From Gammaproteobacteria bacterium (GTDB lineage: Bacteria > Pseudomonadota > Gammaproteobacteria > UBA4575), in assembly GCA_965243395.1 (NCBI GenBank), contig CBDEUS010000002.1:320001-384000 (forward strand): a DNA stretch of 64,000 nucleotides. Direction: 5' to 3'. The notes beneath the pieces are model-generated. The model made no database searches. It was not told the origin of the DNA and was given only the letters and a program-made list of their open reading frames with translations. Position 1 is the first letter of the stretch, and each line of letters opens with the position of its first letter. Positions 49,889 through 63,895 of the stretch are shown here, in pieces. The position numbers and the translations under genes were made by a program.

Positions 49889-50332
49889 ATGTCTATAATT
49901 CTTACTATGAGCGAATTAGAAAAATTCCCTAAAACACGTGCGGATCTAGTCGCTATGCTGCGAAATGCAGACATTACCCCAACCCATCAACGCATCAAAA
50001 TCGGCGAGGTTTTATTTTCTCGCAAACAACATTTATCTGCGGAACAAGTACTCGCGGCAGTTAATCAAGATGATGATGAGGTTTCTAAAGCTACCGTATA
50101 CAACACCTTAGGGGCTTTTGCGCAACATGGTCTATTACGTGAAGTAATTGTTGATCCTTCAAAAGTTTTCTATGACTCTAACTTAAGCAAACATCATCAC
50201 TTATATTATTTAGATACTGGTGAGCTTGAAGATATCGCAGATGAAAATATAGAAGTTTCTAAACTCCCTAATCTACCTAGTGATCTTCAAATTGAAGAAG
50301 TAGATGTCATCATCCGCGTCCATCGCAACTAA
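49889..50332 (+). CDS. Fur-family regulator, Irr-like
   Basis: T.QR, HLSAE, SKATVYNTL and HHH motifs; no CxxC. Confidence 0.88.
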   Translation: MSIILTMSELEKFPKTRADLVAMLRNADITPTHQRIKIGEVLFSRKQHLSAEQVLAAVNQDDDEVSKATVYNTLGAFAQHGLLREVIVDPSKVFYDSNLSKHHHLYYLDTGELEDIADENIEVSKLPNLPSDLQIEEVDVIIRVHRN

Positions 50333-50802: not shown

Positions 50803-51474
50803 TTAGTTTGAGTTTAGGTGTCCTGTTTTCACATAAATCACGCAGCCCTCTTTTGTAAAAGGAGTGTGAAAACTATTTGGCGGGTTTCTTAACCATGTAC
50901 CTTCAGGATAACTACCAAACTCATCTTCAAAGGTTCCTTCAAGTACAAATATTTCTTCGCCGCCTATATGTTGATGTGGTTGGAATATAGTATTTGCTTC
51001 CCATTTCACTAAATCAACATGTTCATGCAAGTGTTCATGCAGAGGCATCACACTTAATCCTGGTACAAGTCCAGGTAACCAAGCTTGTTGCTTAGTTTGC
51101 AGATAAAGCTGCTTGGTATCACTCTCTTGAAACTGCTGTAATTTTACAAAAATTGTGCAACCTTCTTTACTAAAAGGTGCATGCGATGTTCCACCTGGAT
51201 TTCTTAAATAACTGCCAGCTTCATAGCTGCCATGGTTATCTGAAAAAGTGCCTTCAAGTACAAATATTTCTTCTCCATATACATGCCGATGGGGTCGAAA
51301 GGCGCTGCCGGCTACATATCGCACTACAGTAGTAACAGGCTCTGGATCCGCATCAATTCTTTCCAGGCGTTTGCGTAACACACCTTCTGCTTCTGAGGCT
51401 TCCCATGGCATGCTTGCCGTTTCTATAACTGCGCGCAAACTATGATCAGCGTTGAGTTCTTGTATGCTTTCCAT
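50803..51474 (-). CDS. ChrR-like two-domain cupin protein
   Basis: Two repeats of H.H..GEEIFVLEGTF.D..G.Y..G...RNP..S.H.P. Confidence 0.92.
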   Translation of the reverse strand: MESIQELNADHSLRAVIETASMPWEASEAEGVLRKRLERIDADPEPVTTVVRYVAGSAFRPHRHVYGEEIFVLEGTFSDNHGSYEAGSYLRNPGGTSHAPFSKEGCTIFVKLQQFQESDTKQLYLQTKQQAWLPGLVPGLSVMPLHEHLHEHVDLVKWEANTIFQPHQHIGGEEIFVLEGTFEDEFGSYPEGTWLRNPPNSFHTPFTKEGCVIYVKTGHLNSN

Positions 51475-51507: not shown

Positions 51508-51987
51508 ATGCAGTTGACCGAAAACAAATCAATTCTATTACTTTTATTAGGTCTTGCCACTATATTACTCACCATTGGGCTTGTTGCGCCTATTATTACC
51601 TTCACAAAATTTATGTTTATACATAATACTTTTTCCATTCTAAGTGCTTGCTGGAATTTACTGCTACAAGGACAAGTATTTTTATTTTTAATCATTTTCT
51701 TATTTAGCGTCATCTTGCCTATTCTTAAATTGGGCTTATTAGCAAAATTGATTCTAAGTCCCTTGTTAAGCGAAAGTACAAAAAAGCTTCTGGAATGGAT
51801 ACACCGCTTTGGGAGATGGTCAATGTTAGATGTTTTTGTCGTAGCGATTTTGGTAGTAGTGGTTAAGCTAGGCGCAATTGGTAATGTTGAAAAGCATTAT
51901 GGATTATATGCTTATGCTGGTGCAGCGATTTTAATTATGTGGCTCACCCAACAAATCATTCTATTTGTTAAAAATAATCAAAATTAA
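51508..51987 (+). CDS. PqiA-domain membrane protein
   Basis: FSVILPILK, GRWSMLDVFVVAI. Confidence 0.88.
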   Translation: MQLTENKSILLLLLGLATILLTIGLVAPIITFTKFMFIHNTFSILSACWNLLLQGQVFLFLIIFLFSVILPILKLGLLAKLILSPLLSESTKKLLEWIHRFGRWSMLDVFVVAILVVVVKLGAIGNVEKHYGLYAYAGAAILIMWLTQQIILFVKNNQN

Positions 51988-52826
51988 TTTGCGTTCCTAA
52001 ACGGCTGTAACAATAAACGATCAAGCCAAAGTTCGCGTTTATCTCTAAAACTTTCGATACCTATTGTCATTTTTAAATGACCCATTTTAGGTTGAGCACG
52101 ATAAGTTCTAAAAATATAGTCCCACCAAGGTAAATTAAAACCAAAATTGCTATCAGTCTCTTTTTGAATAATAGAATGATGCACACGATGCATCTCCGGC
52201 GTAACTACAAATAGTCTCATTATTTTCTCAATAGACTTAGGTATGCGGATATTTGAATGATTGAATAATGAGGTGGCATTAAGCAAGACCTCAAATATTA
52301 ATACTGCAATTACAGGTGCACCTATCAAGGTCACCATGCAAAGTTTTATCCCTAATGACAGGATTATTTCTATCGGGTGAAATCGAACTGCAGTAGTTAC
52401 ATCAAACTCTAAATCAGCATGATGCATGCGATGTAACCGCCACAAAAAACCTACTTTATGAAAAATGACATGTTGTACATATATTGCAAAATCAAGAAAC
52501 AAAACAGCCACAATAATTGAAATCCAATGTGGCATATCAATCATATTTAACAAGCCATAACCTGATGATTGTACAGAAGCGGCTACAAACAGAACCGTTA
52601 CAGGAACGAAAAGCCATGTGATTAATGCATTGATCGTGCTTATTGAAAGATTGTTAACCCAACGGACAGCCTTTGGATATATTTGCATGCGTCGTGGTGC
52701 AATAAGTTCCCATAGGGCAAATACGATAAATAGAGCCAAAAAAATACTAAAACGTATTAATGCTCCGTCGCTTATCATAGATTCAATCATTACAACGCTC
52801 CTAACAAACACTGTAAGGGAAATCAA
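51984..52826 (-). CDS. Sterol desaturase / fatty acid hydroxylase family protein
   Basis: His boxes H..FH, HRMHH, RFHP, FNHSN, HRVHH. Confidence 0.92.
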   Translation of the reverse strand: MISLTVFVRSVVMIESMISDGALIRFSIFLALFIVFALWELIAPRRMQIYPKAVRWVNNLSISTINALITWLFVPVTVLFVAASVQSSGYGLLNMIDMPHWISIIVAVLFLDFAIYVQHVIFHKVGFLWRLHRMHHADLEFDVTTAVRFHPIEIILSLGIKLCMVTLIGAPVIAVLIFEVLLNATSLFNHSNIRIPKSIEKIMRLFVVTPEMHRVHHSIIQKETDSNFGFNLPWWDYIFRTYRAQPKMGHLKMTIGIESFRDKRELWLDRLLLQPFRNAN

Positions 52827-53219: not shown

Positions 53220-54074
53220 TTGCAGTATAGTAATTGCTGTAGTTTTCATAGATATTTTAGCTTCAATCTATTAATAAAGGCTAAGTACGGTTTACATTCC
53301 GCTATGGGCATTGTTGTCAATCTGTTGCTGGTTTTAATCTTTTGCGCTTTCATCAGTGCCTGCAGCACTTCGTCTTCCAGCGGCATGCCTTCTATACCTT
53401 CCACAAATTCTGAGCCTGAAACTGAATCGGAAGCAAGTTCTTCTAATGAACAAAGTTCTAGCGAACAAAAACAAGCAAGTAAAAATAGTGAATCCACTGG
53501 TGCTTCATCAGATGGACAACAAGAACAAGCTGGCGCTGAAAATGATAATGAGCTAGAACAACCCAGTGCACAAACAGATGAAGAAAAGGTTGCAGTACTG
53601 GATGCGCAACTTGAAAAAGAATTACGTGACTATGATGAACAATTACATAAAGAACTTGAAAAAGCTGAAGAGCAAAAACAAGCACAAGAAAAAGAACATG
53701 AGGCAAAAGAAGCTGCAGAAGCAGGTCTAGATGAAGGAGATGAATTTTCTGCAGGGGGAGAAGATACAGAACAAGCAGGTTCAGAAGATGAGCAAATGGC
53801 TAAGGCCGATTCTCAACAGACACCCAAAGGATCAGCAGAAACGACAGAAAATAATTCTAGCCAAGGAAATAAAGGTAAAGGAAATAGCGGAACTGCGCCT
53901 AAAAATATTCCAAGTGGTGATGATGATGACGTTGTCGCCAGGCAACTGCGAGAAGCTGCTGAAAAAGAACAAGACCCCGAGCTAAGAGAAAAACTTTGGG
54001 AAGAATATCGAAAATATAAGCAGCAACAAAGCACTGCAAGTGCACCGCCTTCGAGTGCTACTGATAAACAATAG
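53220..54074 (+). CDS. Putative lipoprotein with acidic disordered region, coiled coil and ordered C-terminal helix (start uncertain; ATG at 53304 possible)
   Basis: Lipobox ISAC|STS; C-terminal DDDVVARQLREAAEKEQDPELREKLWEEYRKYK. Confidence 0.78.
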   Translation: MQYSNCCSFHRYFSFNLLIKAKYGLHSAMGIVVNLLLVLIFCAFISACSTSSSSGMPSIPSTNSEPETESEASSSNEQSSSEQKQASKNSESTGASSDGQQEQAGAENDNELEQPSAQTDEEKVAVLDAQLEKELRDYDEQLHKELEKAEEQKQAQEKEHEAKEAAEAGLDEGDEFSAGGEDTEQAGSEDEQMAKADSQQTPKGSAETTENNSSQGNKGKGNSGTAPKNIPSGDDDDVVARQLREAAEKEQDPELREKLWEEYRKYKQQQSTASAPPSSATDKQ

Positions 54075-54102
54075 ACAATAGAGCTAACAATTAAAACAGT
54101 TT

Positions 54103-55281
54103 ATGAATAAAAATAATAACTACTACTTTTTTAGTTTACTCCTAATTTTAATTCTTACCGGATGCTCGACTACAGCCGTTAAGGTCAGCGACACCGAAGA
54201 CATTGAAGCTGAAACTGTTCAGTTACAGGAAAGCAAGTTACTGGACGTTGGTATATTGTTATTTGAAGGTGAAATCAGTGAAGAGCAGGTAGAAAAAGAA
54301 GGTGTGCACTATAGCATACGTCAAGCTGAATCGCGTTACATGGCATATCATTTAAAAGAGACTATGCAGCGCTCAAACGGCTGGGGAGCTATACGTGTAT
54401 TACCTGAAAGATCCTACATCGCGGATGTTGTTGTTGCTGGCACCATCATGGCTTCAAACGGTGAAGAAATGATTCTTAAGATCAATGTAGGGGACAGCAC
54501 GGGTGCACAATGGTTTGAGAAAACTTATAAAACTGAAGCGGACGAGGAAGCTTATCGCTATTCAAAGCGTGGTAGAGATGTCTACCAGTATATGTATAAC
54601 CGTATTGCAAATGACATTCGCAAGCACCGAAAAAAACTACCTGAAGATGAGTTAATTACCATACGTAATACTTCTGAACTTCGCTACGCAGCAGGTATTT
54701 CCCCTCAGCCATTTGCTAGCTATGTAAGTACAGGGCCAAATGGACAAAGTAGCATCACGCGTCTACCAGCAAATGATGATCCTATGTTGAACAGGGTGCG
54801 AAAAGTTCGTGATCGTGAGTTTTTATTCATAGATACCATAAACGAACATTACTCGAATTTTTACGGTGCAATGTGGGAGCCGTATGAAAATTGGCGTTAT
54901 TACTACATGATCGAAGCGGAGCAACGCCGCGAAATTGAAAGGCGTGCGAAACAAACCAAGTTTGTTGCAGCACTTATAATGATTGCAGGGGTGATGCGCG
55001 GACCGGGCTTATTTACCACAGGCGCTCTTTTATATAAGAATGGAACAGACATCAGTGAACAAGCAGAGATTCATAATGAAGCCATTCGAGAACTTGGGGA
55101 TTCTTTAGAAGCAGAAGTAAGTCCAATGGTTGTCGAAGTTCAAGGTCGAACCGTTGAGCTAACGGGTTCTATAGAAGAACAGTATCAACAATGGCGTAAG
55201 TTGCTACGCGAAATTTATGTAAATGAAACTGGATTTGCTTATGAAGATACTGTTACAGATACAGAAAGTGCACAACTATAA
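54103..55281 (+). CDS. Putative outer-membrane lipoprotein
   Basis: Lipobox LTGC|S; a late hydrophobic Gly-rich hairpin. Confidence 0.8.
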   Translation: MNKNNNYYFFSLLLILILTGCSTTAVKVSDTEDIEAETVQLQESKLLDVGILLFEGEISEEQVEKEGVHYSIRQAESRYMAYHLKETMQRSNGWGAIRVLPERSYIADVVVAGTIMASNGEEMILKINVGDSTGAQWFEKTYKTEADEEAYRYSKRGRDVYQYMYNRIANDIRKHRKKLPEDELITIRNTSELRYAAGISPQPFASYVSTGPNGQSSITRLPANDDPMLNRVRKVRDREFLFIDTINEHYSNFYGAMWEPYENWRYYYMIEAEQRREIERRAKQTKFVAALIMIAGVMRGPGLFTTGALLYKNGTDISEQAEIHNEAIRELGDSLEAEVSPMVVEVQGRTVELTGSIEEQYQQWRKLLREIYVNETGFAYEDTVTDTESAQL

Positions 55282-55354
55282 TGATTAATAAACTAAGCTC
55301 GCCTCCTGCATAGCTTTTTGTAGTGACAAGGACGTCGAAAGATCTTAAAAAGCT

Positions 55355-56893
55355 ATGTCTGATAAAGATGTCACTCCGATTGAAGCAATCGATTATGAGT
55401 CATTGCAAAAACCCGCGGAGCAAAATCAAGACTCAGAACAAAATGTAAAAAACAAATCTATATTCTGGATTGTTTTAGTACTACTAATTTTATGCGTGTT
55501 GATGGTGTTTTTATTCTTACCGGAATATGTTGCTGAAAAACGTCAAATTAATAGTTCAGACCTGCAAACACAAAGCGATACTCCGCCAACAGTAGATGTA
55601 GCTGATCCTGAACCTTCATCAGAAACTTCTGTTGAACCTACAAAAAGTTTAACTGCTGAGGAACTAAGTGCGCTTAGACAGGAAGCTGAAATCCTTTTGC
55701 TTCAAATAATCGAAAAACAAAAATTTTTAGAAAGTAAAGCAGTTAAAAAATGGGGTCTAGAAGAATTTAGAAATGCTATATCTTTAGGCGCGAGCGGCGA
55801 CGAACACTATCGCAAACAAGAATACAAACAAGCAATAACAAGCTATAACGACACAGTTAATTTGTTAAGTAAACTAGAGAAACAAGTCGCTCCTACACTT
55901 ACGATGCACTTAGAAAAAGGAGAGCTAGCACTCATACAAGCGGAAAAAATAATTGCTATTCAGCATTTTGAATTGGCCAAGTCTATTGATGAAAAAAATA
56001 CTCAAGCGATTAATGGTTTGAAACGCGCCTCGACTATAGAAGAATTATATTCCTTACTTGAAAAAGGCGGTAAATTAGAAGCAGCAAATAGATTTAGTGA
56101 TGCAAAAAATACTTATGCGCAAGCAACTGAGCTTGACCCTCTATCTCTAGAAGCCAAAGAAGCGCTCAATAGAGTAAAGAGCCGTTTGGCAGAACTAGAA
56201 TTTACTCGCATGATCAATCAAGGTTATGCGTCACTAAAACTTCGCCAATATGGAGATGCAAGGGCAGCGTTTAAAACTGCACAAGAATTGTTTCCAAACT
56301 CTGACAAACCTAAACAGGGCTTGGCTCGCATAGAGCGAGCTATTTTGGAAGAAAAAATAGCTTCACTAACAGCTGAAGCACAGCATTTTGAAAATGCGCA
56401 AAATTGGACTAACGCAGCAAATAGCTACCAACAACTTCTTGCATTAAATCCAAATTCTGCATCAGCGCAACAAGGCTTGCAGCGCAACCAAGAGCGCGAA
56501 CAAATTCTTTCAAGTTTAACTAACCACATCGAAAATAAATTGCGCTTAAGTTCTGATTCTGTTGCGAACGATGCTAAGAAACTTTTGAATAAAATAGAAT
56601 TGCTGGATAACCCTGGTAGTAAAATAGAACAAGGGGCTTTGACCTTACAAGAGCTTTTAGTATTAGCAAACAGACCTATATTAATTACTTTACATTCTGA
56701 CAACCAAACGGATGTTGCTATTTATAAAGTGGGCAAGTTCGGAAAATTTGACAGTCGTGAAGTCGAACTAAAGCCAGGAAAATATACGATTGTCGGCTCT
56801 CGTTCCGGTTTTCGCGATGTGCGCAAAGTAGTAACTATAATGGCAGAAATGACGGATACAACGATTCAAGTGCGCTGTGAAGAGCCGATTTAA
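55355..56893 (+). CDS. Single-TM TPR protein with C-terminal PEGA-like beta domain
   Basis: TM at about aa 37-55, several TPR-like helical repeats, LKPGKYTIVGSRSGFRDVR. Confidence 0.8.
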   Translation: MSDKDVTPIEAIDYESLQKPAEQNQDSEQNVKNKSIFWIVLVLLILCVLMVFLFLPEYVAEKRQINSSDLQTQSDTPPTVDVADPEPSSETSVEPTKSLTAEELSALRQEAEILLLQIIEKQKFLESKAVKKWGLEEFRNAISLGASGDEHYRKQEYKQAITSYNDTVNLLSKLEKQVAPTLTMHLEKGELALIQAEKIIAIQHFELAKSIDEKNTQAINGLKRASTIEELYSLLEKGGKLEAANRFSDAKNTYAQATELDPLSLEAKEALNRVKSRLAELEFTRMINQGYASLKLRQYGDARAAFKTAQELFPNSDKPKQGLARIERAILEEKIASLTAEAQHFENAQNWTNAANSYQQLLALNPNSASAQQGLQRNQEREQILSSLTNHIENKLRLSSDSVANDAKKLLNKIELLDNPGSKIEQGALTLQELLVLANRPILITLHSDNQTDVAIYKVGKFGKFDSREVELKPGKYTIVGSRSGFRDVRKVVTIMAEMTDTTIQVRCEEPI

Positions 56894-56911
56894 TTAAAAA
56901 TTACAAAACAT

Positions 56912-59329
56912 ATGATTGAACAAGTTTGTATAACTGATCATAAAGGGCCTAGGTTTTATACCCATGCAGACTTTCCTTTATCTATAGGATCGGATGCAAA
57001 TGCGGATTTAGAGGTGCCTGTCATTGATGAAAATTCCAGGCAAAAACAAAAGCCTGCTTTCTTAATTATTATTGTTAACCGAACTTATATTGATGCCGAT
57101 AATTCAAATATTAAAATTCTTCTCAACAACGAACCTGTTTCTGGACAAAAAGAACTCCAACATGATGATATTTTAGAAATAGAAGGTTCAGCCTTTCACT
57201 GTGAACATATTGGTGACACGCTCTCTATTTCTTTGTATGAAAATGATGCTCATTTAGTTAGCCAAAATGAAGCAATTGCCTCTGATGGGGAAATAATCGA
57301 ACCTATTGAAATATCAGAACCTATTAAAGAAAAAAAATCTAATCGAAGATTTAAAAGTTTTTTTGTTGTTATTGGAATATTGATATTTGGTTTACTAGTA
57401 GTTGTTATAGGCTATATTTTTACTGCTAAAACTTTATTAATTGAAATAGAGCCTGCTCCTGATCGACTTGCGTTACATGGAAATGTTTGGCCGATCAAAA
57501 TTCGAGATCGTTATCTTGTACAACCTGGAAATTATTTTATTGAAGCAAGCAAAGATGGTTACCGGCCTTTAGAAAAAGAAATTAAAGTTAGTAATCATCA
57601 ATCGCAAACTTTATCGTTTACTTTAGAAAAAAAACCAGGCTATCTAAATATTACGAGTCAACCTGAGAAAGAAGTCGAAATTACTATTGATAGTCTAAAG
57701 ATAGGCGCAACTCCGATACAATCTTTAGAGCTCGAAGCTGGAACTTATAACTTAGAAGCCACAGCTGAGCGTTATCAACCTTATAGCACTCAATTAATCA
57801 TTGAGGGAAAAGAGCTGGAACAAAATTTAAATGTTGAACTACTTCCAGACTGGGCGGAAGTATTAATCGATTCACAACCCGCAGGCGCCGAAATTTGGTT
57901 AGATGGAGAAAAAAAGGGGGTTACACCCCAATCTTTCGAGTTGGATTCAGGACAATACAGTTTAGAACTTAGACACAAAGATTTTTTGCCTTATGAAAAA
58001 GAATTCTTCGTTGATGCCAACCAACCTATAAATCTCCCCGTAGCCGAATTATTTACTAACCCAAGCCATTTGGTCATTACTAGCACTCCCTCAAAAGCAA
58101 TTGTTGAAATTGCGGGTGAAGAACAAGGGATAACACCATTTACTTTACGATTAAGCCCTAACATCGAACACAGCATTACTCTCAGCAAACCTGGGTTTAG
58201 ATCAAATCAGCAAACCGTAACTTTAAAGCCGGGAGAACAACAGAATATTTCTGCTACTTTGGAAGCGATATTAGGCACGGTGGTTCTTAACATCGAACCA
58301 CAAGATGCCGAAATTTTTATTAACGGTAAATTTATGGGAAGTGGAAACGTAAAATTATCCTTACCTAGCGCAAGTCAACGCCTAGAAATAAGAAAGTCTG
58401 GCTATCAAGTTTTTGAAAGAATGATTTCTCCAGCAGCTGACTCTCCTCAAGTACTAGATGTAACTTTATCGCGCATCACTAGTACATCCGATATTAGTAA
58501 ACCTAAGACTTTGCGTACTTCCGAAGGACAAGAGCTAAAATTAATTTTTGGAGGTAAATTTTCTATGGGTGCTGCACGCCGTGAACAAGGACGGCGCTCT
58601 AATGAAACCTTACATACTGTAGAATTAGTTAAACCGTTCTATGTCAGTGTGCATGAAATTACCAACCAGCAATATTTAGTCTTTAATAGTTCGCATAGCT
58701 CGGGTTCATATAAAGGTCATGATCTATCTACGGGAAAATTGCCAGTAGTAAATATTAGTTGGGAAGAGGCTGCACGTTACTGTAATTGGTTAAGCATTAA
58801 AGATGGGCTAGAACCCGTTTACCGTGAAAATAATGGTAAGTTAATTGCTAAAAATCCTATACCTTCTGGTTATCGTCTGCTTACGGAAAGCGAGTGGGAA
58901 TGGGTTGCGCGGGTTAAAAGCAATAATCAAGTATATCGATATGAATGGGGAAACAGTTTTCCTCCCGATAAAGTTACCGGGAATTATGCGGATCAATCTG
59001 CTAAAGATTTATTAGACCCCATACTACCTGATTATCAGGACAGTTTTATTGTTGCAGCACCTGTAGGAAGTTTTGCCGCTAATCATTTCGGAATTTTTGA
59101 TATGGGCGGTAATGTTGCAGAATGGTGTCATGATTATCATAGTATCTACCCTAGTTTAAGTGATGAAATCTTCACGGACCCGGTTGGTCCAAATACAGGT
59201 GATAAGCATGTAATTCGTGGTGCATCATGGATGCGGGGGGATTTGAGCAGTACACGTTTAAGCTACCGTGATCGAGATAACACTAAACGCACTGATGTTG
59301 GCTTTCGAATTGCGAGATATATAGACTAA
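56912..59329 (+). CDS. FHA-like/TM/multi-PEGA/FGE-sulfatase (SUMF1-family) domain protein
   Basis: About 5 PEGA repeats (SQP.GA.I..DG...G.TP), F.MG, HEITNQQY, PVVNISWEEA..YC.W, RLLTESEWE, DMGGNVAEW, GFRIAR. Confidence 0.9.
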   Translation: MIEQVCITDHKGPRFYTHADFPLSIGSDANADLEVPVIDENSRQKQKPAFLIIIVNRTYIDADNSNIKILLNNEPVSGQKELQHDDILEIEGSAFHCEHIGDTLSISLYENDAHLVSQNEAIASDGEIIEPIEISEPIKEKKSNRRFKSFFVVIGILIFGLLVVVIGYIFTAKTLLIEIEPAPDRLALHGNVWPIKIRDRYLVQPGNYFIEASKDGYRPLEKEIKVSNHQSQTLSFTLEKKPGYLNITSQPEKEVEITIDSLKIGATPIQSLELEAGTYNLEATAERYQPYSTQLIIEGKELEQNLNVELLPDWAEVLIDSQPAGAEIWLDGEKKGVTPQSFELDSGQYSLELRHKDFLPYEKEFFVDANQPINLPVAELFTNPSHLVITSTPSKAIVEIAGEEQGITPFTLRLSPNIEHSITLSKPGFRSNQQTVTLKPGEQQNISATLEAILGTVVLNIEPQDAEIFINGKFMGSGNVKLSLPSASQRLEIRKSGYQVFERMISPAADSPQVLDVTLSRITSTSDISKPKTLRTSEGQELKLIFGGKFSMGAARREQGRRSNETLHTVELVKPFYVSVHEITNQQYLVFNSSHSSGSYKGHDLSTGKLPVVNISWEEAARYCNWLSIKDGLEPVYRENNGKLIAKNPIPSGYRLLTESEWEWVARVKSNNQVYRYEWGNSFPPDKVTGNYADQSAKDLLDPILPDYQDSFIVAAPVGSFAANHFGIFDMGGNVAEWCHDYHSIYPSLSDEIFTDPVGPNTGDKHVIRGASWMRGDLSSTRLSYRDRDNTKRTDVGFRIARYID

Positions 59330-59342
59330 GTGAGTAAACGTT

Positions 59343-59597
59343 ATGATGAATTTGTGTAAATTATTTATTTATATCGTTACTCTGCTTGCATTTACTTTCA
59401 CGATAGTTAACGCAGAAGAAAACGATGGGAATCAAGATGATCAAACTAAAGAAGAACAAGTAACTGAAACAGCTAACAAGGAAAAATCTGTTAAACAAAA
59501 TGCTAATAAACGCAGTCAGGTAAAAACACTAGAAAAATTCATTCCTTCAGAAGAAGTCTCAGCGGATAAGCCTGTAGCATTTCCTGCTGATATCTAA
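59343..59597 (+). CDS. Small exported protein
   Basis: Signal peptide (VNA|E), disordered middle, C-terminal FIPSEEVSADKPVAFPADI. Confidence 0.75.
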   Translation: MMNLCKLFIYIVTLLAFTFTIVNAEENDGNQDDQTKEEQVTETANKEKSVKQNANKRSQVKTLEKFIPSEEVSADKPVAFPADI

Positions 59598-59616
59598 TCA
59601 TCATCAATAATAAAAT

Positions 59617-60414
59617 ATGAAAAAAAATTTTCCATTCGAGTTTATATATCAAATTTTTAGTTTGTTAATAATAATTATCATTGTCCACGCAGCGTATGTT
59701 GCTGTAATCCGGCCTAATGCAGAAGCTGAGCTTGAGCAACAAGCAGCACAAATTAATATTGATAAAGACTATGTGCCTAAACGATCTATTTATGTACTGA
59801 TCCGTGACTATGAACAAGAAGCCTGCTTTATTCTAATGTTTTGGGCTTTATGTATTATGGCCTTCAAAAGTATGAACCTATTTCGCGAGCGCAGCTTATT
59901 AGACAAAGATTTGCTGCATGCAAAAGAAGGAATAAAGTTTTTACCTCAAGATACTCGAGAATTATCGAGGCAAATTCAAAATCTGCCTGAAGACGAACAA
60001 AAATATTTATTGCCCAGAGCACTGAACGTTGCATTGCATCGCTTCAGTTCAACACAAAATATCCAGGATGTGTCTTCAGCAACCACTAATGTATGTGAGT
60101 CTGAATCAGAGCGCCTCGATTCTGAGCTTTCTATTATTCGATACATTACTTGGGCTATTCCATCAATAGGCTTTCTTGGCACTGTGCGAGGTATTGGTGA
60201 TGCATTAGGCCAAGCCCATAAAGCAGTCGAAGGTGACATCGCTGGAGTTACAGAAAGCCTGGGTGTTGCATTTAATTCAACGCTTATTGCATTGTGTATC
60301 AGTATTGTACTGATGTTTATTGTGCATCAATTACAGCTTCTGCAAGAAAGGTTTATCTTAGATACACAGAACTATTGTAATAACAATTTAATTCGGCACT
60401 TACAGGTTAGTTAG
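59617..60414 (+). CDS. MotA/TolQ/ExbB proton channel family protein
   Basis: AIPSIGFLGTVRGI and LGVAFNSTLIAL TM motifs. Confidence 0.92.
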   Translation: MKKNFPFEFIYQIFSLLIIIIIVHAAYVAVIRPNAEAELEQQAAQINIDKDYVPKRSIYVLIRDYEQEACFILMFWALCIMAFKSMNLFRERSLLDKDLLHAKEGIKFLPQDTRELSRQIQNLPEDEQKYLLPRALNVALHRFSSTQNIQDVSSATTNVCESESERLDSELSIIRYITWAIPSIGFLGTVRGIGDALGQAHKAVEGDIAGVTESLGVAFNSTLIALCISIVLMFIVHQLQLLQERFILDTQNYCNNNLIRHLQVS

Positions 60415-60423
60415 GTCGCTGAT

Positions 60424-61785
60424 GTGTTCACTATCAATCCCATTATCATTGAATGTTATGACAATGGAATACGCATCTGTGATGATGAGAAAATTCTTGC
60501 TGATAGCGCAAGCTTTGCATTAATTGAAACAAGTCGACACGTTACCGTAGGTCCTTCTGCTCAACAACAAGCTCATCTTCGTCCTCGTGAAGTCAGCACA
60601 ACATTTTGGAGCGACTTATCAGCTAACAGCACTACTAAGCATGTTGTAAGTAATGCCGAGCTCGCACTTAATCATTTACATTATGTTTTACAGCAAGCCA
60701 ATTGCTCGGATCAAGATGCCATAGTTATCACTCCCGCAACATTTGATAAACATCACTTAGGTTTACTGCTTGGCATTTGTGAAAAACTGCCCATCAAAAT
60801 TGTCGGTATCGTCTGCAACGCTACGCTTGCGATGCAAGGATTTATTGATGATTGCAAAGCTGTATATTTAGATTTATTACAACGAAAATTAGTCTTGACA
60901 GAACTTATTCATAGTAATTCTGGTGTCGAATTAAAAACACCCAGTCGAATTTTTGATTATGGCTTACAGGACTTTGTGCATAACATCGCAAAATTAATTG
61001 CTGACAAATTTGTTGCAGAAACGCGCTTTGATCCTTTGCATATTGCAAAACATGAGCAACAACTTTTTGATAAATTGCCACTTTGGTTGAATATGTTAAA
61101 AAACACGGATAGCACTGAGTGCAATTTATCCACTGAGGACGAATCATTTTCCATAAATATAAGCCAACAACAACTGCAACAAGCTAATCACCAGCAATTT
61201 GATAAAATTGCAGCTTATCTTAATGTGCTTTTCCACAACCATGATGCGATAGCCATTTATTGTTCATCAAGTTGTCAGCAAGTATTTGGTATGCAAAATT
61301 TCTTTTCGAACTTGCCAGGTTGTGCAGTAATACAGCTTGAAGATGATTCTTTAGCTAAAAATGCTTTGCTTAATAAAGATGAAATTATAAGCAAGGAGCA
61401 GGTTTTATACGTAAATAGTTTACCTTGGCATTCTAAATTTAAGCCCGACACTTTATCTTTTAATCCTGGGAAAATATCTAACCTTTCAAGTTTACCTACA
61501 CATATCTTGATTGATGGTCATGCATATGGCTTACAACAAGATATTTATATTGCGCATGACAGGTCTTCAAAATTGTTAATCACACTTGAACAGACATCTG
61601 AGAGCTTATGCAAAATTTCATCTAATAACTTAAGTGTAGATGTTGAGATTTTAAATTCTATAAAAATACAAATGAATTCGATTTCAGTAGAAAATAATGT
61701 GCACGCAAAAATAGGCGACACATTAGCTGTTCAGGACTGTTTGACACATTGTCGGTTTATAAAAGTGGTAGAGCATGAAGCGTAG
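60424..61785 (+). CDS. Hypothetical cytoplasmic protein, degenerate actin/Hsp70-like fold with possible C-terminal FHA-like domain
   Basis: VG..A......P, IVITPATF...LLLGI...IVGIV and VYLDL echo Hsp70/MreB motifs, but the GGG loop is missing. Confidence 0.6.
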   Translation: MFTINPIIIECYDNGIRICDDEKILADSASFALIETSRHVTVGPSAQQQAHLRPREVSTTFWSDLSANSTTKHVVSNAELALNHLHYVLQQANCSDQDAIVITPATFDKHHLGLLLGICEKLPIKIVGIVCNATLAMQGFIDDCKAVYLDLLQRKLVLTELIHSNSGVELKTPSRIFDYGLQDFVHNIAKLIADKFVAETRFDPLHIAKHEQQLFDKLPLWLNMLKNTDSTECNLSTEDESFSINISQQQLQQANHQQFDKIAAYLNVLFHNHDAIAIYCSSSCQQVFGMQNFFSNLPGCAVIQLEDDSLAKNALLNKDEIISKEQVLYVNSLPWHSKFKPDTLSFNPGKISNLSSLPTHILIDGHAYGLQQDIYIAHDRSSKLLITLEQTSESLCKISSNNLSVDVEILNSIKIQMNSISVENNVHAKIGDTLAVQDCLTHCRFIKVVEHEA

Positions 61786-62863
61786 ATCCGTAAATGCTTT
61801 TAATTTAGCTTTTTTGGATGTCATGTTTTGTGGTTTTGGTGCTGTGATACTATTTTTTATGATCATTAATGCTAATACACATGAAAGAAGAGATAAAATA
61901 AATTACGAAGTCACAGGTGAAGTAAATAAACTAGATAAGGAGGTTATAGGCGCACAAAAATTTTTAGTGGAATTGAAAAATTCTTTACAAGAAACAAATG
62001 ATGAGCTGATTCAAGCACAAGGTAAGTCACATGAAGTTATCGAAAATATTAAAAAGAATAAAGATCAGCTTGCAAAATTAGACAAAAACACATTAGCCAA
62101 GTTAGAAAGCATAGAAAAACTAAAGGCGGATTTAAAATCGATTGAAGAAGAGAATCAACGTCTTGAAGGTGGTGCAGAAAAGCTATTAGAAGGTGAGCGT
62201 CTAAGGCAATTTTCTGGTACAGGGCATCGTCAATACTTAACTGGACTAAAAATGGGAGGTGAACGAATATTGATTCTAGTGGACACTTCCGCCAGCATGC
62301 TAGCAGATCGAATTGTTAATGTTCTACGTTTTCGAAATTTGCCTCCTGATGAACGCGTACGCGCAGCCAAATGGCAACAGGTACTTTATACCGTAGATTG
62401 GATTACCACACGCATACCAACTACAAGTAAATTTCAAATTTACAGTTTTAATGAAACGACTTCTGCAACATATGAAGTGGAAGGAGAGCAGTGGTTAGAT
62501 GGAGGAAATATAAAACACCTCGACACTGCAGTACATAATTTATTTCAAATAGCACCTGAAAAAGGTACCAATCTTTATAAAGCATTTGAAAGTATTAACC
62601 AGTTCTCTCCTCCGCCTGACAATATTTATTTGCTAACAGATGGCTTGCCTACAAAAGGTCCCTCGATAAGCTTTGGAAATAAAGTAAGCTCAAAACAGCG
62701 TAAAAAATTATATTCTAAAGCTATACAAGAACTACCAGGTGGCATCCCTGTAAATATCATTTTATTTCACATGGAGGGGGATCCGTTGGCTGCTAGTGAA
62801 TTTTGGAAATTGGCGCAAAATTCTAATGGTGCCTTCTTCAGTCCTGCAAGAGATTGGCCCTAA
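61775..62863 (+). CDS. ExbD/TolR/MotB-like TM + coiled coil + vWA domain protein
   Basis: KRR...AFLDVMFCGFGAVILFF TM containing Asp; MIDAS DTSAS...T...LLTDG. Confidence 0.85.
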   Translation: MKRRSVNAFNLAFLDVMFCGFGAVILFFMIINANTHERRDKINYEVTGEVNKLDKEVIGAQKFLVELKNSLQETNDELIQAQGKSHEVIENIKKNKDQLAKLDKNTLAKLESIEKLKADLKSIEEENQRLEGGAEKLLEGERLRQFSGTGHRQYLTGLKMGGERILILVDTSASMLADRIVNVLRFRNLPPDERVRAAKWQQVLYTVDWITTRIPTTSKFQIYSFNETTSATYEVEGEQWLDGGNIKHLDTAVHNLFQIAPEKGTNLYKAFESINQFSPPPDNIYLLTDGLPTKGPSISFGNKVSSKQRKKLYSKAIQELPGGIPVNIILFHMEGDPLAASEFWKLAQNSNGAFFSPARDWP

Positions 62864-62887
62864 GACATTGGTTTTGACATTATTACT

Positions 62888-63895
62888 ATGAAACGACGTC
62901 GAAATATTGAAATATTTAGTTTGTCTTTTTTAGACTGCGTTTGTTGCGGCTTTGGTGCACTGATCTTATTGCTAGTGTTATCCAAAACTGCGGAACCAGT
63001 AATTTTTGAAGAGTATTCGCTCGATCTAGAAAACATATTAGCCAAGTTACAAACCGAGCTGTTTGAAATTCGTGGTGAAACTCATATTTTAAATCGTGAT
63101 TTAGTCACAAAAAAACAACAGCTTTCCGAAGAAGTTGAAAAAATTGCATTACTTCAAGCAGATTTATCTTCTATTCTTGGAAAATTCGCTGCTTCAAAAG
63201 ATAGTTCAAATATACAAAACAAAATTGAACAGCAACTGGCAACTGCCAAACAAGACCTCACGGAAGAGATGCGTCGATTACAAGAACAACAAAGCAGGCC
63301 CAGAACAGAATTTGACGATACAGTTGGAGGAATTCCGGTAGATAGCGAATACATTATTTTTATAATTGATACCTCAGGAAGTATGTTTAACCATGGCTGG
63401 GGTTCCGTTATACAAAAACTCTCTGAAGTTTTAGACATCTACCCCAAGGTTAAAGGTATTCAAGTAATGAATGATATGGGTGAATATATGTTCGCCCAAT
63501 ACACAGGAAAATGGATCCCAGATACACCAGCAAGACGTAAAGCAATTATTAAACGCATGCGTAAATGGCAAGCTTTTAGTAATAGCAGTCCTGTTGAAGG
63601 TATCACAGCCGCGATTAATACATTCTATTCAAAAAATAAAAAAATCAGTTTATATGTGTTCGGTGATGAATTTACCGGTCCTTCGATTCAATCCGTGTTA
63701 CACGAAGTGAGTCAACTTAATCCTAAAAATACTAATGGTAAGCGTCGAGTTCGTATTCATGCAGTAGGGTTTCCGATTCAGTTCAGTCGCCCCGATAGTG
63801 AGCAGGGTACCGGAGTTAGATTTGCCACTTTAATGCGAGCATTATGCGAGCAAAATGGCGGTACATTTGTAGGTCTAAATTCTCATTATCCCTGA
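62888..63895 (+). CDS. ExbD/TolR/MotB-like TM + coiled coil + vWA domain protein (paralogue)
   Basis: KRRR...SFLDCVCCGFGALILL TM containing Asp; MIDAS DTSGS...FGDE; IHAVGF. Confidence 0.85.
   Translation: MKRRRNIEIFSLSFLDCVCCGFGALILLLVLSKTAEPVIFEEYSLDLENILAKLQTELFEIRGETHILNRDLVTKKQQLSEEVEKIALLQADLSSILGKFAASKDSSNIQNKIEQQLATAKQDLTEEMRRLQEQQSRPRTEFDDTVGGIPVDSEYIIFIIDTSGSMFNHGWGSVIQKLSEVLDIYPKVKGIQVMNDMGEYMFAQYTGKWIPDTPARRKAIIKRMRKWQAFSNSSPVEGITAAINTFYSKNKKISLYVFGDEFTGPSIQSVLHEVSQLNPKNTNGKRRVRIHAVGFPIQFSRPDSEQGTGVRFATLMRALCEQNGGTFVGLNSHYP

Follow-up and report, generated by a model that had tools for sequence, protein, structure and literature searches.

What work can an ion channel of the MotA/ExbB/TolQ type do in a gene cluster that encodes none of its usual partners? 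This question is raised by a stretch of 64,000 nucleotides (nt) from a gammaproteobacterial genome of 2.58 Mb in two contigs (G000:C2:320001-384000; hereafter the window), whose open reading frame (ORF) listing shows nine co-oriented plus-strand genes at 53220-63895, named here g1 to g9 in 5' to 3' order. An earlier note on this DNA had described the nine genes as separated by at most about 75 bp, and had proposed that they encode an undescribed and distinct ion motor reaching across the envelope. The intergenic distances from g1 to g9, 28, 73, 18, 13, 19, 9, -11 (an overlap) and 24 bp, agree with that description, the largest being 73 bp.

Ion motors of the 5:2 type drive several unrelated processes of the envelope, from swimming and gliding through the import of nutrients and the upkeep of the outer membrane to type IX secretion and a phage defence, and each new set of partners found for such a motor has exposed a new process. 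The locus described here probably specifies a machine of the cell envelope that belongs to the MotA/ExbB/TolQ type and runs on an ion flow, most likely of protons. The family of one of its proteins, g9, is common in the class, without an assigned role for any member.

Predicted motor core and exported peptide

We first describe g6, g8 and g9. The g6 protein belongs to the Pfam family PF01618 (MotA_ExbB), scoring 54.8 bits where the cut-off is 22.9 (E 1.1e-14). The residues G185, F186, G188-G194 (including T189) and A218-T222 (AFNST) are identical in all 66 sequences aligned, and the final two membrane helices hold T189, within GTVRGIG, and T222, within AFNST. We take these two residues to be the channel-lining threonines of ExbB and TolQ. 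This assignment is in line with a statement in PMC12204202.

The g8 and g9 proteins have one hydrophobic helix each, which is N-terminal and carries an invariant Asp. The invariant helix residues are F13, D15, G20, G22 and A23 in g8 (69 sequences; D15 at nt 61817-61819) and F14, D16, C20, F22, G23 and A24 in g9 (59 sequences; D16 at nt 62933-62935). MotB, ExbD and TolR are all marked by an Asp in the one membrane helix of the B subunit, a hallmark also named in PMC12204202. In both, a coiled-coil stretch follows, for which a profile of approximately residues 40-155 of g8 matches, among solved proteins, coiled coils only, and then a head of the vWA type. In the head of g8 the residues D170, S172, S174 and D289 of the metal ion-dependent adhesion site (MIDAS) are invariant and T265 is present in at least 90% of the sequences. 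In the head of g9, D161, S163, S165 and D260 are invariant, while the position of the MIDAS Thr was not identified. The DxSxS motif is invariant in both proteins, with Pfam matches below cut-off (VWA_2 at E 6e-5 for g8, and E 0.014 only for g9), and the two proteins are paralogues, as observed by profile comparison (hhalign 99.7%, E 2e-26).

Searches with Pfam and NCBIfam, Pfam being extended to E 10 on the N-termini and on g9, gave no ExbD (PF02472), MotB or OmpA domain on g8 or g9, and the first 51-52 residues of both proteins showed zero Pfam matches at E up to 10. Since no profile matches the two helices, the label TolR-like rests on the invariant Asp and on the published description. By inspection, neither helix contains an SHLS motif. 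None of the nine cluster proteins matches the TolA, TolB, Pal or CpoB families or an OmpA-domain or MotB profile (Pfam, NCBIfam), and the usual partners are absent from the cluster, as had been remarked earlier. Judged by their sequences, g8 and g9 would constitute a B-subunit family separate from TolR, ExbD and MotB, with vWA heads, and the g6 channel with the paired g8/g9 B subunits is supported as the motor core. A 5:2 stoichiometry of g6 with g8/g9 and a pulling action are inferred.

Elsewhere, the genome has four further MotA_ExbB genes, three of which adjoin ExbD-family genes. At G000:C1:1045272-1046737, two ExbD-family matches come after a MotA_ExbB gene, and the MotA_ExbB gene at C1:1258619-1258951, with no ExbD-family neighbour, may be a flagellar stator.

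A motor of this kind has been predicted before. PMC12204202 (Mol Biol Evol 2025) describes tolQ-like genes accompanied by mostly heterologous pairs of membrane-tethered vWA genes, the vWA proteins bearing a TolR-like helix with a conserved Asp and without an SHLS motif, and no tolR or exbD being nearby. The paper reports structure models of homologues, proposes a 5:2 motor, places the family in Proteobacteria and Verrucomicrobia with Idiomarina loihiensis as the reference carrier, suggests gliding for the vWA transducers, and assigns no role. Its available text covers the motor gene and the vWA pair, and leaves g1-g5, g7, the kinase/PP2C/FHA layer and the reduced variants described below unmentioned; the neighbouring genes that we call new may appear in its Fig. 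4c and supplementary fig. S1.7. Within the searchable part of PubMed Central, no literature was found on the accessory gene set (combinations of PEGA, FGE, vWA and MotA/TolQ). The reviews and surveys PMC12505986 and PMC12905483 do not mention vWA, and PMC7159879 treats PEGA, FGE and vWA in other systems and leaves MotA unmentioned. The word undescribed in the earlier note therefore does not hold for the motor core, which is a published prediction, and stands for the remaining parts: as far as searched, the full gene set, the pairing of g5 with a metal site, the optional kinase/PP2C/FHA layer, with its decay in this lineage, and the reduced variants are new.

Immediately upstream of the motor gene lies g5, and this position is always kept, even in loci with altered gene order. 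The g5 protein begins with a hydrophobic N-terminus of the signal type, continues with a disordered acidic/basic middle without conservation, and ends in the motif FxP(S/T)...(F/Y)PxDI-COOH (residues 66-84, nt 59538-59594). Across 35 sequences the motif residues F66, P81, D83 and I84 do not vary, and that Ile is always the last residue of the protein. Of 69 loci, 55 have an ORF ending in [FY]PxDI directly before the motor gene, which is a lower bound, the script having taken the longest ORF per gap; such an ORF also occurs in the variant locus L022 and in five of the six reduced loci (see below). In the reduced loci g5 has only 40-50 residues, and its hydrophobic N-terminus runs almost directly into ...FPVDI (e.g. 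L087:11246-11368). Such mini-g5 proteins are found in L084-L087, the longest reading, that of L086, having 69 residues; if the hydrophobic part is not cleaved, they would be membrane-anchored and would display the motif at the inner membrane.

A complex model was built of the g8 head (residues 130-362), the g9 head (125-335), g5 residues 45-84 and two Mg, each protein being supplied with its own alignment. The complex model obtained a score of 0.89 (0.89, 0.88 and 0.89 in the individual runs). Among three controls the best score was 0.29, with g8 replaced, and replacement of g5 gave 0.00 twice. Of 80 solved complexes, 58 attained the mark applied to this score, compared to 2 of 110 mismatched pairs, counts that are only rough, as the author's own alignments and Mg were carried along. 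The runs share at least 83% of their contacts, with a predicted local distance difference test (pLDDT) of at least 68 for the partner. In the models, residues 78-84 of g5 contact g8 at 172-174, 264-265 and 293-294, i.e. the metal-site face, with D83 and I84 of g5 placed against S172-S174 and G264. Integrin-type metal sites hold an acidic ligand residue, and the modelled contact resembles that arrangement. The model thus presents the C-terminus of g5 as a putative ligand of the g8 MIDAS site.

Conservation of the cluster and the cytoplasmic layer

The conservation of the cluster was examined in 80 loci, the best of at least 555 stretches with a gene for a g7 relative (pattern scan, one genome per species), g7 being present in 80/80 by construction. 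Nearly all of these loci belong to metagenome-assembled Gammaproteobacteria (Thiotrichales, Woeseiaceae, Steroidobacteraceae, Lysobacterales and others). Using the window proteins in tblastn, g6, g8 and g9 were each matched in 78 of the 80 loci, g4 in 74, g3 in 67, and g1 and g2 in 61 each; g5, too short and too varied for tblastn, was matched in 13. Most of the misses fall in loci truncated at contig ends, and the order and strand of the matched cluster genes are constant across the 80 loci.

As these loci had been chosen via g7, a second search was started from g9. Among 400 genomes sampled from the class, a g9 relative (E <= 1e-30) is present in 35, in single copy in nearly all of them, and a g7 relative (E <= 1e-10) in 16, all within the 35 g9-positive genomes; both tallies include the unpublished genome G039. 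The g9 protein is the best conserved of the cluster, with >8000 relatives, and g7 has 1154 cluster representatives at E <= 1e-30. In a sample of 301 genomes from the phylum, g9 relatives were found in one further family. All 12 matches outside the window's class lie in this family (f261; genomes G421-G665), mostly in one genus, in genomes of 1.4-3.1 Mb; the occurrence in a single family suggests transfer, or retention in one lineage.

Six genomes that are g9-positive and g7-negative were then examined, and their loci are referred to as reduced. All six contain g1, g2, g4, g6, g8 and g9 in the standard order, and g3 was matched in four. Four of them are without any g7, and the other two have an ORF of 307-308 residues in its place (L082:11630-12553 and L083:11136-12062). 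The ORF of L082 matches g7 as a divergent relative (hhalign 95.6%, E 1.2e-8) and lacks the FHA end. These two loci come from small genomes, one of which belongs to the window's own family. The g4 alignment begins at residue 133 or later in all six reduced loci, and the FHA-like N-terminus of g4 found no tblastn match in any of them. Since the envelope genes and the motor are kept where g7 and the FHA-like part of g4 are absent, the conserved core looks like the envelope set together with the motor, and the cytoplasmic parts like an optional add-on.

The earlier note had treated the nine genes as one unit, and as such they are kept, in order and strand, in the 80 loci, and most of them, in order, in the reduced loci. 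Its proposal of a distinct ion motor finds sequence support for g6, g8 and g9, while the cytoplasmic part, which it had counted in, looks like an addition and not like core.

A variant order (g4, g7, two extra ORFs, g5, g6, g8, g9) was observed in L016, L020, L022 and L051. The extra ORFs encode approximately 220-260 residues without Pfam match (e.g. L020:11525-12872 and L022:11493-12841). The g4 of the variant loci has about 690 residues, and the L020 copy opens with a PEGA domain and has no FHA-like domain.

The AlphaFold2 (AF2) model of g7 (38 sequences, pLDDT 90.6) shows a Hsp70-type nucleotide-binding fold over approximately residues 1-340. Foldseek against the PDB placed Hsp70s at the top (E 1e-18 to 1e-14), and matches to the nucleotide-binding domain alone gave target template-modelling (TM) scores of 0.65-0.72 at a root-mean-square deviation (rmsd) of about 4; no Pfam match was obtained for g7. 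The model ends in a C-terminal beta-sandwich, which in distant homologues is the Pfam FHA domain PF00498 (residues 370-436, E 1e-13). In the g7 of the window the FHA loop reads SESL instead of S[RK]xH, and Pfam FHA has no match in the window's g7 or g4. The FHA-like domains of these two proteins are degenerate, while kinase-bearing relatives keep both the FHA match and the loop.

The kinase in question resides on g3. The g3 orthologues of L012, L024 and L026 have 750-790 residues and an N-terminal Hanks-type kinase (Pkinase, E 1e-29 to 1e-39). A kinase was found on 40 of 67 g3 orthologues, with two more as a split ORF (phmmer); among the remaining ones, 4 are cut at contig ends and 21 are full-length without kinase. 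In the loci of these 21, which include all close relatives of the window, no kinase match was found anywhere in the locus, and the window g3 itself has no N-terminal kinase. The motif S[RK]xH was observed in the FHA domain of g7 in 36 of 41 kinase-bearing loci compared to 0 of 22 kinase-less ones, and the 16 loci of unclassified g3 status split 11 to 5. On the sequence evidence, this pattern fits a kinase that would write the marks that g7 reads, the reader decaying once the writer is lost, and the lineage of the window has lost both the kinase and the g7 FHA motif. Outside the window, Pkinase is matched above its Pfam cut-off at five places in the genome (C1:919236-919985 and four others), one of them in an 800-residue ORF.

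Upstream of the genes, on the plus strand, one ORF cluster (blastp) recurs in 28 of 78 loci, and its scanned members (n=2) are PP2C phosphatases. Another upstream ORF cluster is present in 24 of 78 loci, and its scanned members are double-zinc-ribbon proteins. The order in L026 is zinc-ribbon (L026:2-532), PP2C, g1. The double-zinc-ribbon protein, upstream of PP2C in kinase-bearing clusters, may be part of the regulatory layer.

Lipoproteins, periplasmic proteins and surroundings

The lipoboxes of g1 and g2 are ISAC and LTGC, respectively, both with Ser at +2, and by the lipobox sorting rules the two proteins would be placed at the outer membrane. The listed ORF of g1 starts at a TTG (53220), and the lipoprotein signal starts at the ATG at 53304. 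The mature part of g1 comprises a tether of about 180 low-complexity acidic residues (24% D+E) and a C-terminal motif of 41 residues, P.DIP.G.DDDvVArQLREAA..E.DPeLRe.LWeEYRkYk (nt 53898-54020; 62 sequences). This motif was also matched by tblastn in the reduced loci L083-L087, the match in L082 being weaker and offset.

The AF2 model of g2 (pLDDT 76) consists of an N-terminal alpha/beta domain followed by a helical hairpin of about 105 residues. For the N-terminal domain, Foldseek gave a FlgT/LPHT ring (E 1e-5) and PelC (target TM 0.58), and VIA-align gave the LPHT ring (Z 8.9, 161 aligned residues, rmsd 4.4), PelC (Z 7.8) and TolB (Z 7.7), all in the middling range. The best fold matches of the modelled domain would accordingly be, at middling strength, the TolB N-domain and lipoproteins that form rings or associate with the outer membrane. 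No Pfam family was found for g2, and ESM Atlas returned hypothetical or unnamed clusters only. The tip of the hairpin is hydrophobic (residues 287-305, window 54961-55017; model pLDDT approximately 58-64), and could be membrane-inserting or a contact surface within an oligomer.

The g3 protein has a short cytoplasmic N-terminus, one membrane helix (36-54) and a TPR region (TPR_2, E 4.4e-12), and ends in a PEGA-like part with a Pfam E of 0.018 and a hhalign probability of 84% over 36 columns. In g4, a membrane helix (151-169) is followed by five PEGA stretches (E 2.5e-52) and an FGE-sulfatase domain (residues 544-802, E 1e-40), both identified by Pfam. Its first 163 residues gave no Pfam match at E up to 10, and approximately residues 12-98 match the FHA profile of the g7 relatives (hhalign 96%, E 3.5e-9, 82 columns). 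Against PDB sequences the FGE-like domain matches bacterial FGE (1e-17) and PorK (5e-15). The two Cys of the sequence ylChdsyCnry in FGE (6muj, 2q17), its catalytic pair, align with Arg and Ser in g4. As the Cys residues are replaced, the FGE-like domain of g4 is read as a non-catalytic binding module. The top PDB match of the domain is a Treponema variable protein, and a hypervariable domain of the diversity-generating retroelement type was considered and rejected: g4 is 63-77% identical in close relatives, and no reverse transcriptase was found among the window ORFs scanned.

With these results, the protein kinds listed in the earlier note can be recognised throughout the cluster. The two lipoproteins, the small exported peptide (g5, with its signal-type N-terminus), the MotA/TolQ/ExbB channel (above the PF01618 cut-off) and the two proteins with membrane helix, coiled coil and vWA domain (invariant DxSxS, Pfam vWA below cut-off) were correctly named. 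The same applies to the succession of FHA-like, membrane, PEGA and FGE parts in g4, where PEGA and FGE are seen by Pfam and the FHA-like part by profile comparison only. The actin/Hsp70-like fold of g7 was confirmed by AF2 and Foldseek, the C-terminal FHA domain of this protein having been overlooked. For g3, described as a membrane, TPR and PEGA protein, the helix and the TPR are clear and the PEGA part is weakly supported. None of the nine proteins has an equivalog in NCBIfam (Table 1).

Table 1 Genes of the cluster, with their positions in the window and predicted products
Gene	Position	Strand	Product
g1	53304..54074	+	predicted lipoprotein; lipobox ISAC, acidic tether, C-terminal motif
g2	54103..55281	+	predicted lipoprotein; lipobox LTGC, FlgT/PelC/TolB-N-type domain, helical hairpin
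g3	55355..56893	+	membrane helix, periplasmic TPR, PEGA-like C-terminal end
g4	56912..59329	+	degenerate FHA-like, membrane helix, five PEGA, FGE-sulfatase-like
g5	59343..59597	+	small exported peptide, 84 residues; C-terminal FPxDI-COOH
g6	59617..60414	+	MotA/TolQ/ExbB-family channel ('A') subunit
g7	60424..61785	+	Hsp70-type nucleotide-binding-domain fold and C-terminal FHA-fold domain; cytoplasmic
g8	61775..62863	+	'B' subunit 1: TolR-like helix, coiled coil, vWA/MIDAS head
g9	62888..63895	+	'B' subunit 2, g8 paralogue: helix, coiled coil, vWA-like head

The flanks are unrelated to the cluster, and their guanine-cytosine (GC) content is about that of the cluster. On the 5' side lies a minus-strand fatty-acid hydroxylase gene (51984-52826), and on the 3' side a gap of 215 bp is followed by a DUF6174 protein. 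A short ORF of the PqiA family (159 residues, 51508-51987, plus strand) is convergent with the hydroxylase gene and ends 4 bp inside it; just upstream of this ORF, a ChrR-type cupin is encoded on the minus strand at 50803-51474, and a Fur-family regulator at 49889-50332.

Proposed mechanism, alternatives and known systems

The domains, the invariant residues, the gene order, the paralogy of g8 and g9 and the kinase/FHA pattern are observations on sequences, and the seating of g5 in the g8 metal site is a model; on these the following mechanism is built by inference. In the mechanism that we propose, a pentameric ring of g6 would surround the helices of g8 and g9, and ion flow along the Asp/Thr path would turn or shift these helices. 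The two B subunits would replace TolR, ExbD or MotB, each inserting a TolR-like Asp helix into the g6 ring. Their coiled-coil stalks, of about 115 residues, could carry the motion approximately 17 nm into the periplasm (0.15 nm per residue, own estimate), where the vWA/MIDAS heads would bind ligands via their metal sites. The head of g8 would hold the FPxDI-COOH end of g5 in its metal site, g5 either capping the head while it is idle or linking it to the load as an adaptor. The g4 and g3 proteins would form a periplasmic scaffold, and the PEGA arrays perhaps grip peptidoglycan, acting as a stator; PEGA is counted among the peptidoglycan-associating domains in PMC7159879. The candidate outer-membrane ends would be g1, with its tether and acidic helical motif, and the FlgT/PelC-like g2. 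On the cytoplasmic side, a regulatory add-on would be made up of g7 and the FHA-like part of g4, joined in most relatives by the g3 kinase (in some with PP2C); it may act via phosphothreonine where the g3 kinase exists. By analogy with GltG, the helix and FHA-like domain of g4 may flank the ring and, by analogy with TagQ/TagR/PpkA, the FGE-like domain and the lipoproteins may pass the state of the envelope to the kinase where it is present.

As to the cellular role, our best guess is a part in tethering the envelope or keeping it intact, with Tol-Pal and Agl-Glt as the nearest systems, and this role is favoured over motility, secretion, pure signalling and defence. A more specific proposal, which we regard as tentative and on the whole rather doubtful, is that of a distinct and widespread machine in which the B subunits of a proton motor, with integrin-like heads of which one is loaded with g5, pull on tethered outer-membrane lipoproteins, the cytoplasmic kinase/phosphatase/FHA switch being dispensable. 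In such a machine g5 would be a cap or handle that is engaged and released by the motor. If true, this would be a new coupling of ion flow to periplasmic work, apart from Ton, Tol, flagella, gliding, the type IX secretion system (T9SS) and Zorya. The cluster provides a list of parts with testable contacts, i.e. two Asp, two metal sites, a 5-residue peptide motif, a lipoprotein motif and a kinase/FHA switch, which makes the question of function directly approachable in a culturable carrier.

Several points weigh against the envelope machine as described. The vWA heads of g8 and g9 score under the Pfam cut-off, and the contact between g5 and g8 is a model score and not a measurement. The reach to the outer membrane follows from the lipobox rules and from a middling fold match of g2, and the cluster encodes no outer-membrane barrel, no peptidoglycan-binding OmpA domain and no obvious load. 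In the regulatory layer, the g7 consensus, inspected by eye, seems to be without glycine-rich phosphate loops and to have no DxGGG-type second loop. The correlation between the kinase and the FHA motif counts related, non-independent genomes and, since the window copy is without kinase, phospho-regulation is not directly applicable to it. Finally, PMC12204202 itself states that deletion phenotypes have not been reported.

Some of the parts are of the kinds found in a damage-sensing pathway, and the locus could be mainly an envelope-damage sensor as in TagQ/TagR/PpkA/Fha1/PppA, the threonine-phosphorylation pathway by which type VI secretion is turned on in Pseudomonas aeruginosa, the motor only resetting or probing the sensor and the output being a phosphorylated cytoplasmic target. 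The kinds of parts are the same, i.e. lipoproteins, a periplasmic FGE-like domain, a membrane Ser/Thr kinase with a periplasmic part, FHA and PP2C, and the periplasmic domain of PpkA is a vWA domain. In that pathway, residues 127-359 of TagR are FGE-sulfatase-like, membrane damage brings TagR together with the lipoprotein TagQ in a complex that engages the periplasmic domain of the kinase PpkA, and PpkA phosphorylates the FHA protein Fha1 (PMC13713981). Nevertheless, 21 full-length g3 orthologues, those of the window clade included, have no kinase locus-wide, the g7 FHA motif has decayed in the kinase-less loci, and the six reduced genomes have neither a full-length g7 nor a match to the FHA-like domain of g4. 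As the envelope genes and the motor persist throughout, signalling is not the conserved core. Unlike the type VI pathway, the cluster has no type VI gene, TagS/TagT or transcription factor (Pfam, NCBIfam), and its kinase layer is optional and absent from the window. We consider it unlikely that the locus is mainly such a sensor. A machine for surface motility or adhesion, with a logic akin to that of Agl-Glt of Myxococcus, is a second alternative. PMC11761067 describes GltG, an FHA-domain protein that crosses the membrane by a helix and extends into the periplasm, as predicted to dock on the TolQ-like AglR ring, GltC, GltD and GltE as TPR proteins, and the lipoprotein adhesin CglB as having a vWA domain. 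The domain types of g4, g3 and g8/g9 correspond to these, so that the cluster shares with Agl-Glt a TolQ-like motor, a GltG-type architecture, periplasmic TPR, lipoproteins and a vWA domain somewhere, and the gliding proposed for vWA transducers in PMC12204202 points in the same direction. However, the cluster has no GltA/B/H-like or other Glt outer-membrane barrel, no TonB-C domain, no link to AglZ/MglA/MreB and no sequence-level membership, and its vWA domain is on the B subunits of the motor and not on a surface lipoprotein, which makes this reading improbable. Its retention in genomes of 1.6-2.0 Mb has little weight either way.

Two further alternatives start from single proteins of the cluster. 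The match of the g4 FGE-like domain to PorK/GldK (TIGR03525, E 7.9e-29; PDB PorK, 5e-15) would suit an export apparatus similar to the T9SS, with a PorK-like FGE ring and a 5:2 motor, and the PelC-like N-domain of g2 would suit a polysaccharide exporter with a PelC-like ring. A 5:2-type motor together with a non-catalytic FGE-like periplasmic protein is indeed common to the cluster and to PorLM/PorK/PorN. However, the TIGR03525 score is far below the equivalog cut-off (101.2 bits vs 350), g4 is anchored by a membrane helix and not lipidated, the fold matches of g2 are middling, and no translocon, PorM/PorN, glycosyltransferase or outer-membrane barrel was found in or next to the cluster, so we hold export, too, to be improbable. 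An anti-phage defence of the Zorya type, in which a MotAB-like complex senses an attack on the envelope and triggers an effector, is highly improbable. In PADLOC, g6 matched ZorA (E 1.2e-4) and g5 matched ZorB (E 5e-3), both weakly, and the distribution, 35 of 400 genomes, is patchy across families. These matches, however, reflect family-level MotA similarity only, and the cluster, although it shares with Zorya a non-flagellar MotA-family protein, has no long ZorA tail, peptidoglycan-binding ZorB domain, ZorC/D/E effector, nuclease or other effector. Its GC content is like that of the flanks, it is mostly single copy per genome, a downstream neighbour is common to 29 of 78 clustered loci, and two flank clusters were read as housekeeping. 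Defence had been considered as the lead reading and was dropped, the PADLOC matches being sub-family and of MotA type only.

The ion-driven envelope machine that we prefer is best placed by comparison with Tol-Pal and ExbBD-TonB and with the published vWA motors. In common with Tol-Pal and ExbBD-TonB, the cluster has an A subunit of the same Pfam family, a one-helix B subunit with an Asp, a periplasmic element with a binding head, and lipoprotein partners; in addition, the N-domain of g2 weakly resembles that of TolB. In contrast to these systems, there is no third protein of the TolA/TonB type with an SHLS helix, no TolB propeller, no Pal/OmpA and no TonB-dependent receptor, and the B subunits themselves bear the long stalk and the head. 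The g6, g8 and g9 proteins have, likened by description, every feature named for the transpore-helix vWA motors in the available text of PMC12204202.

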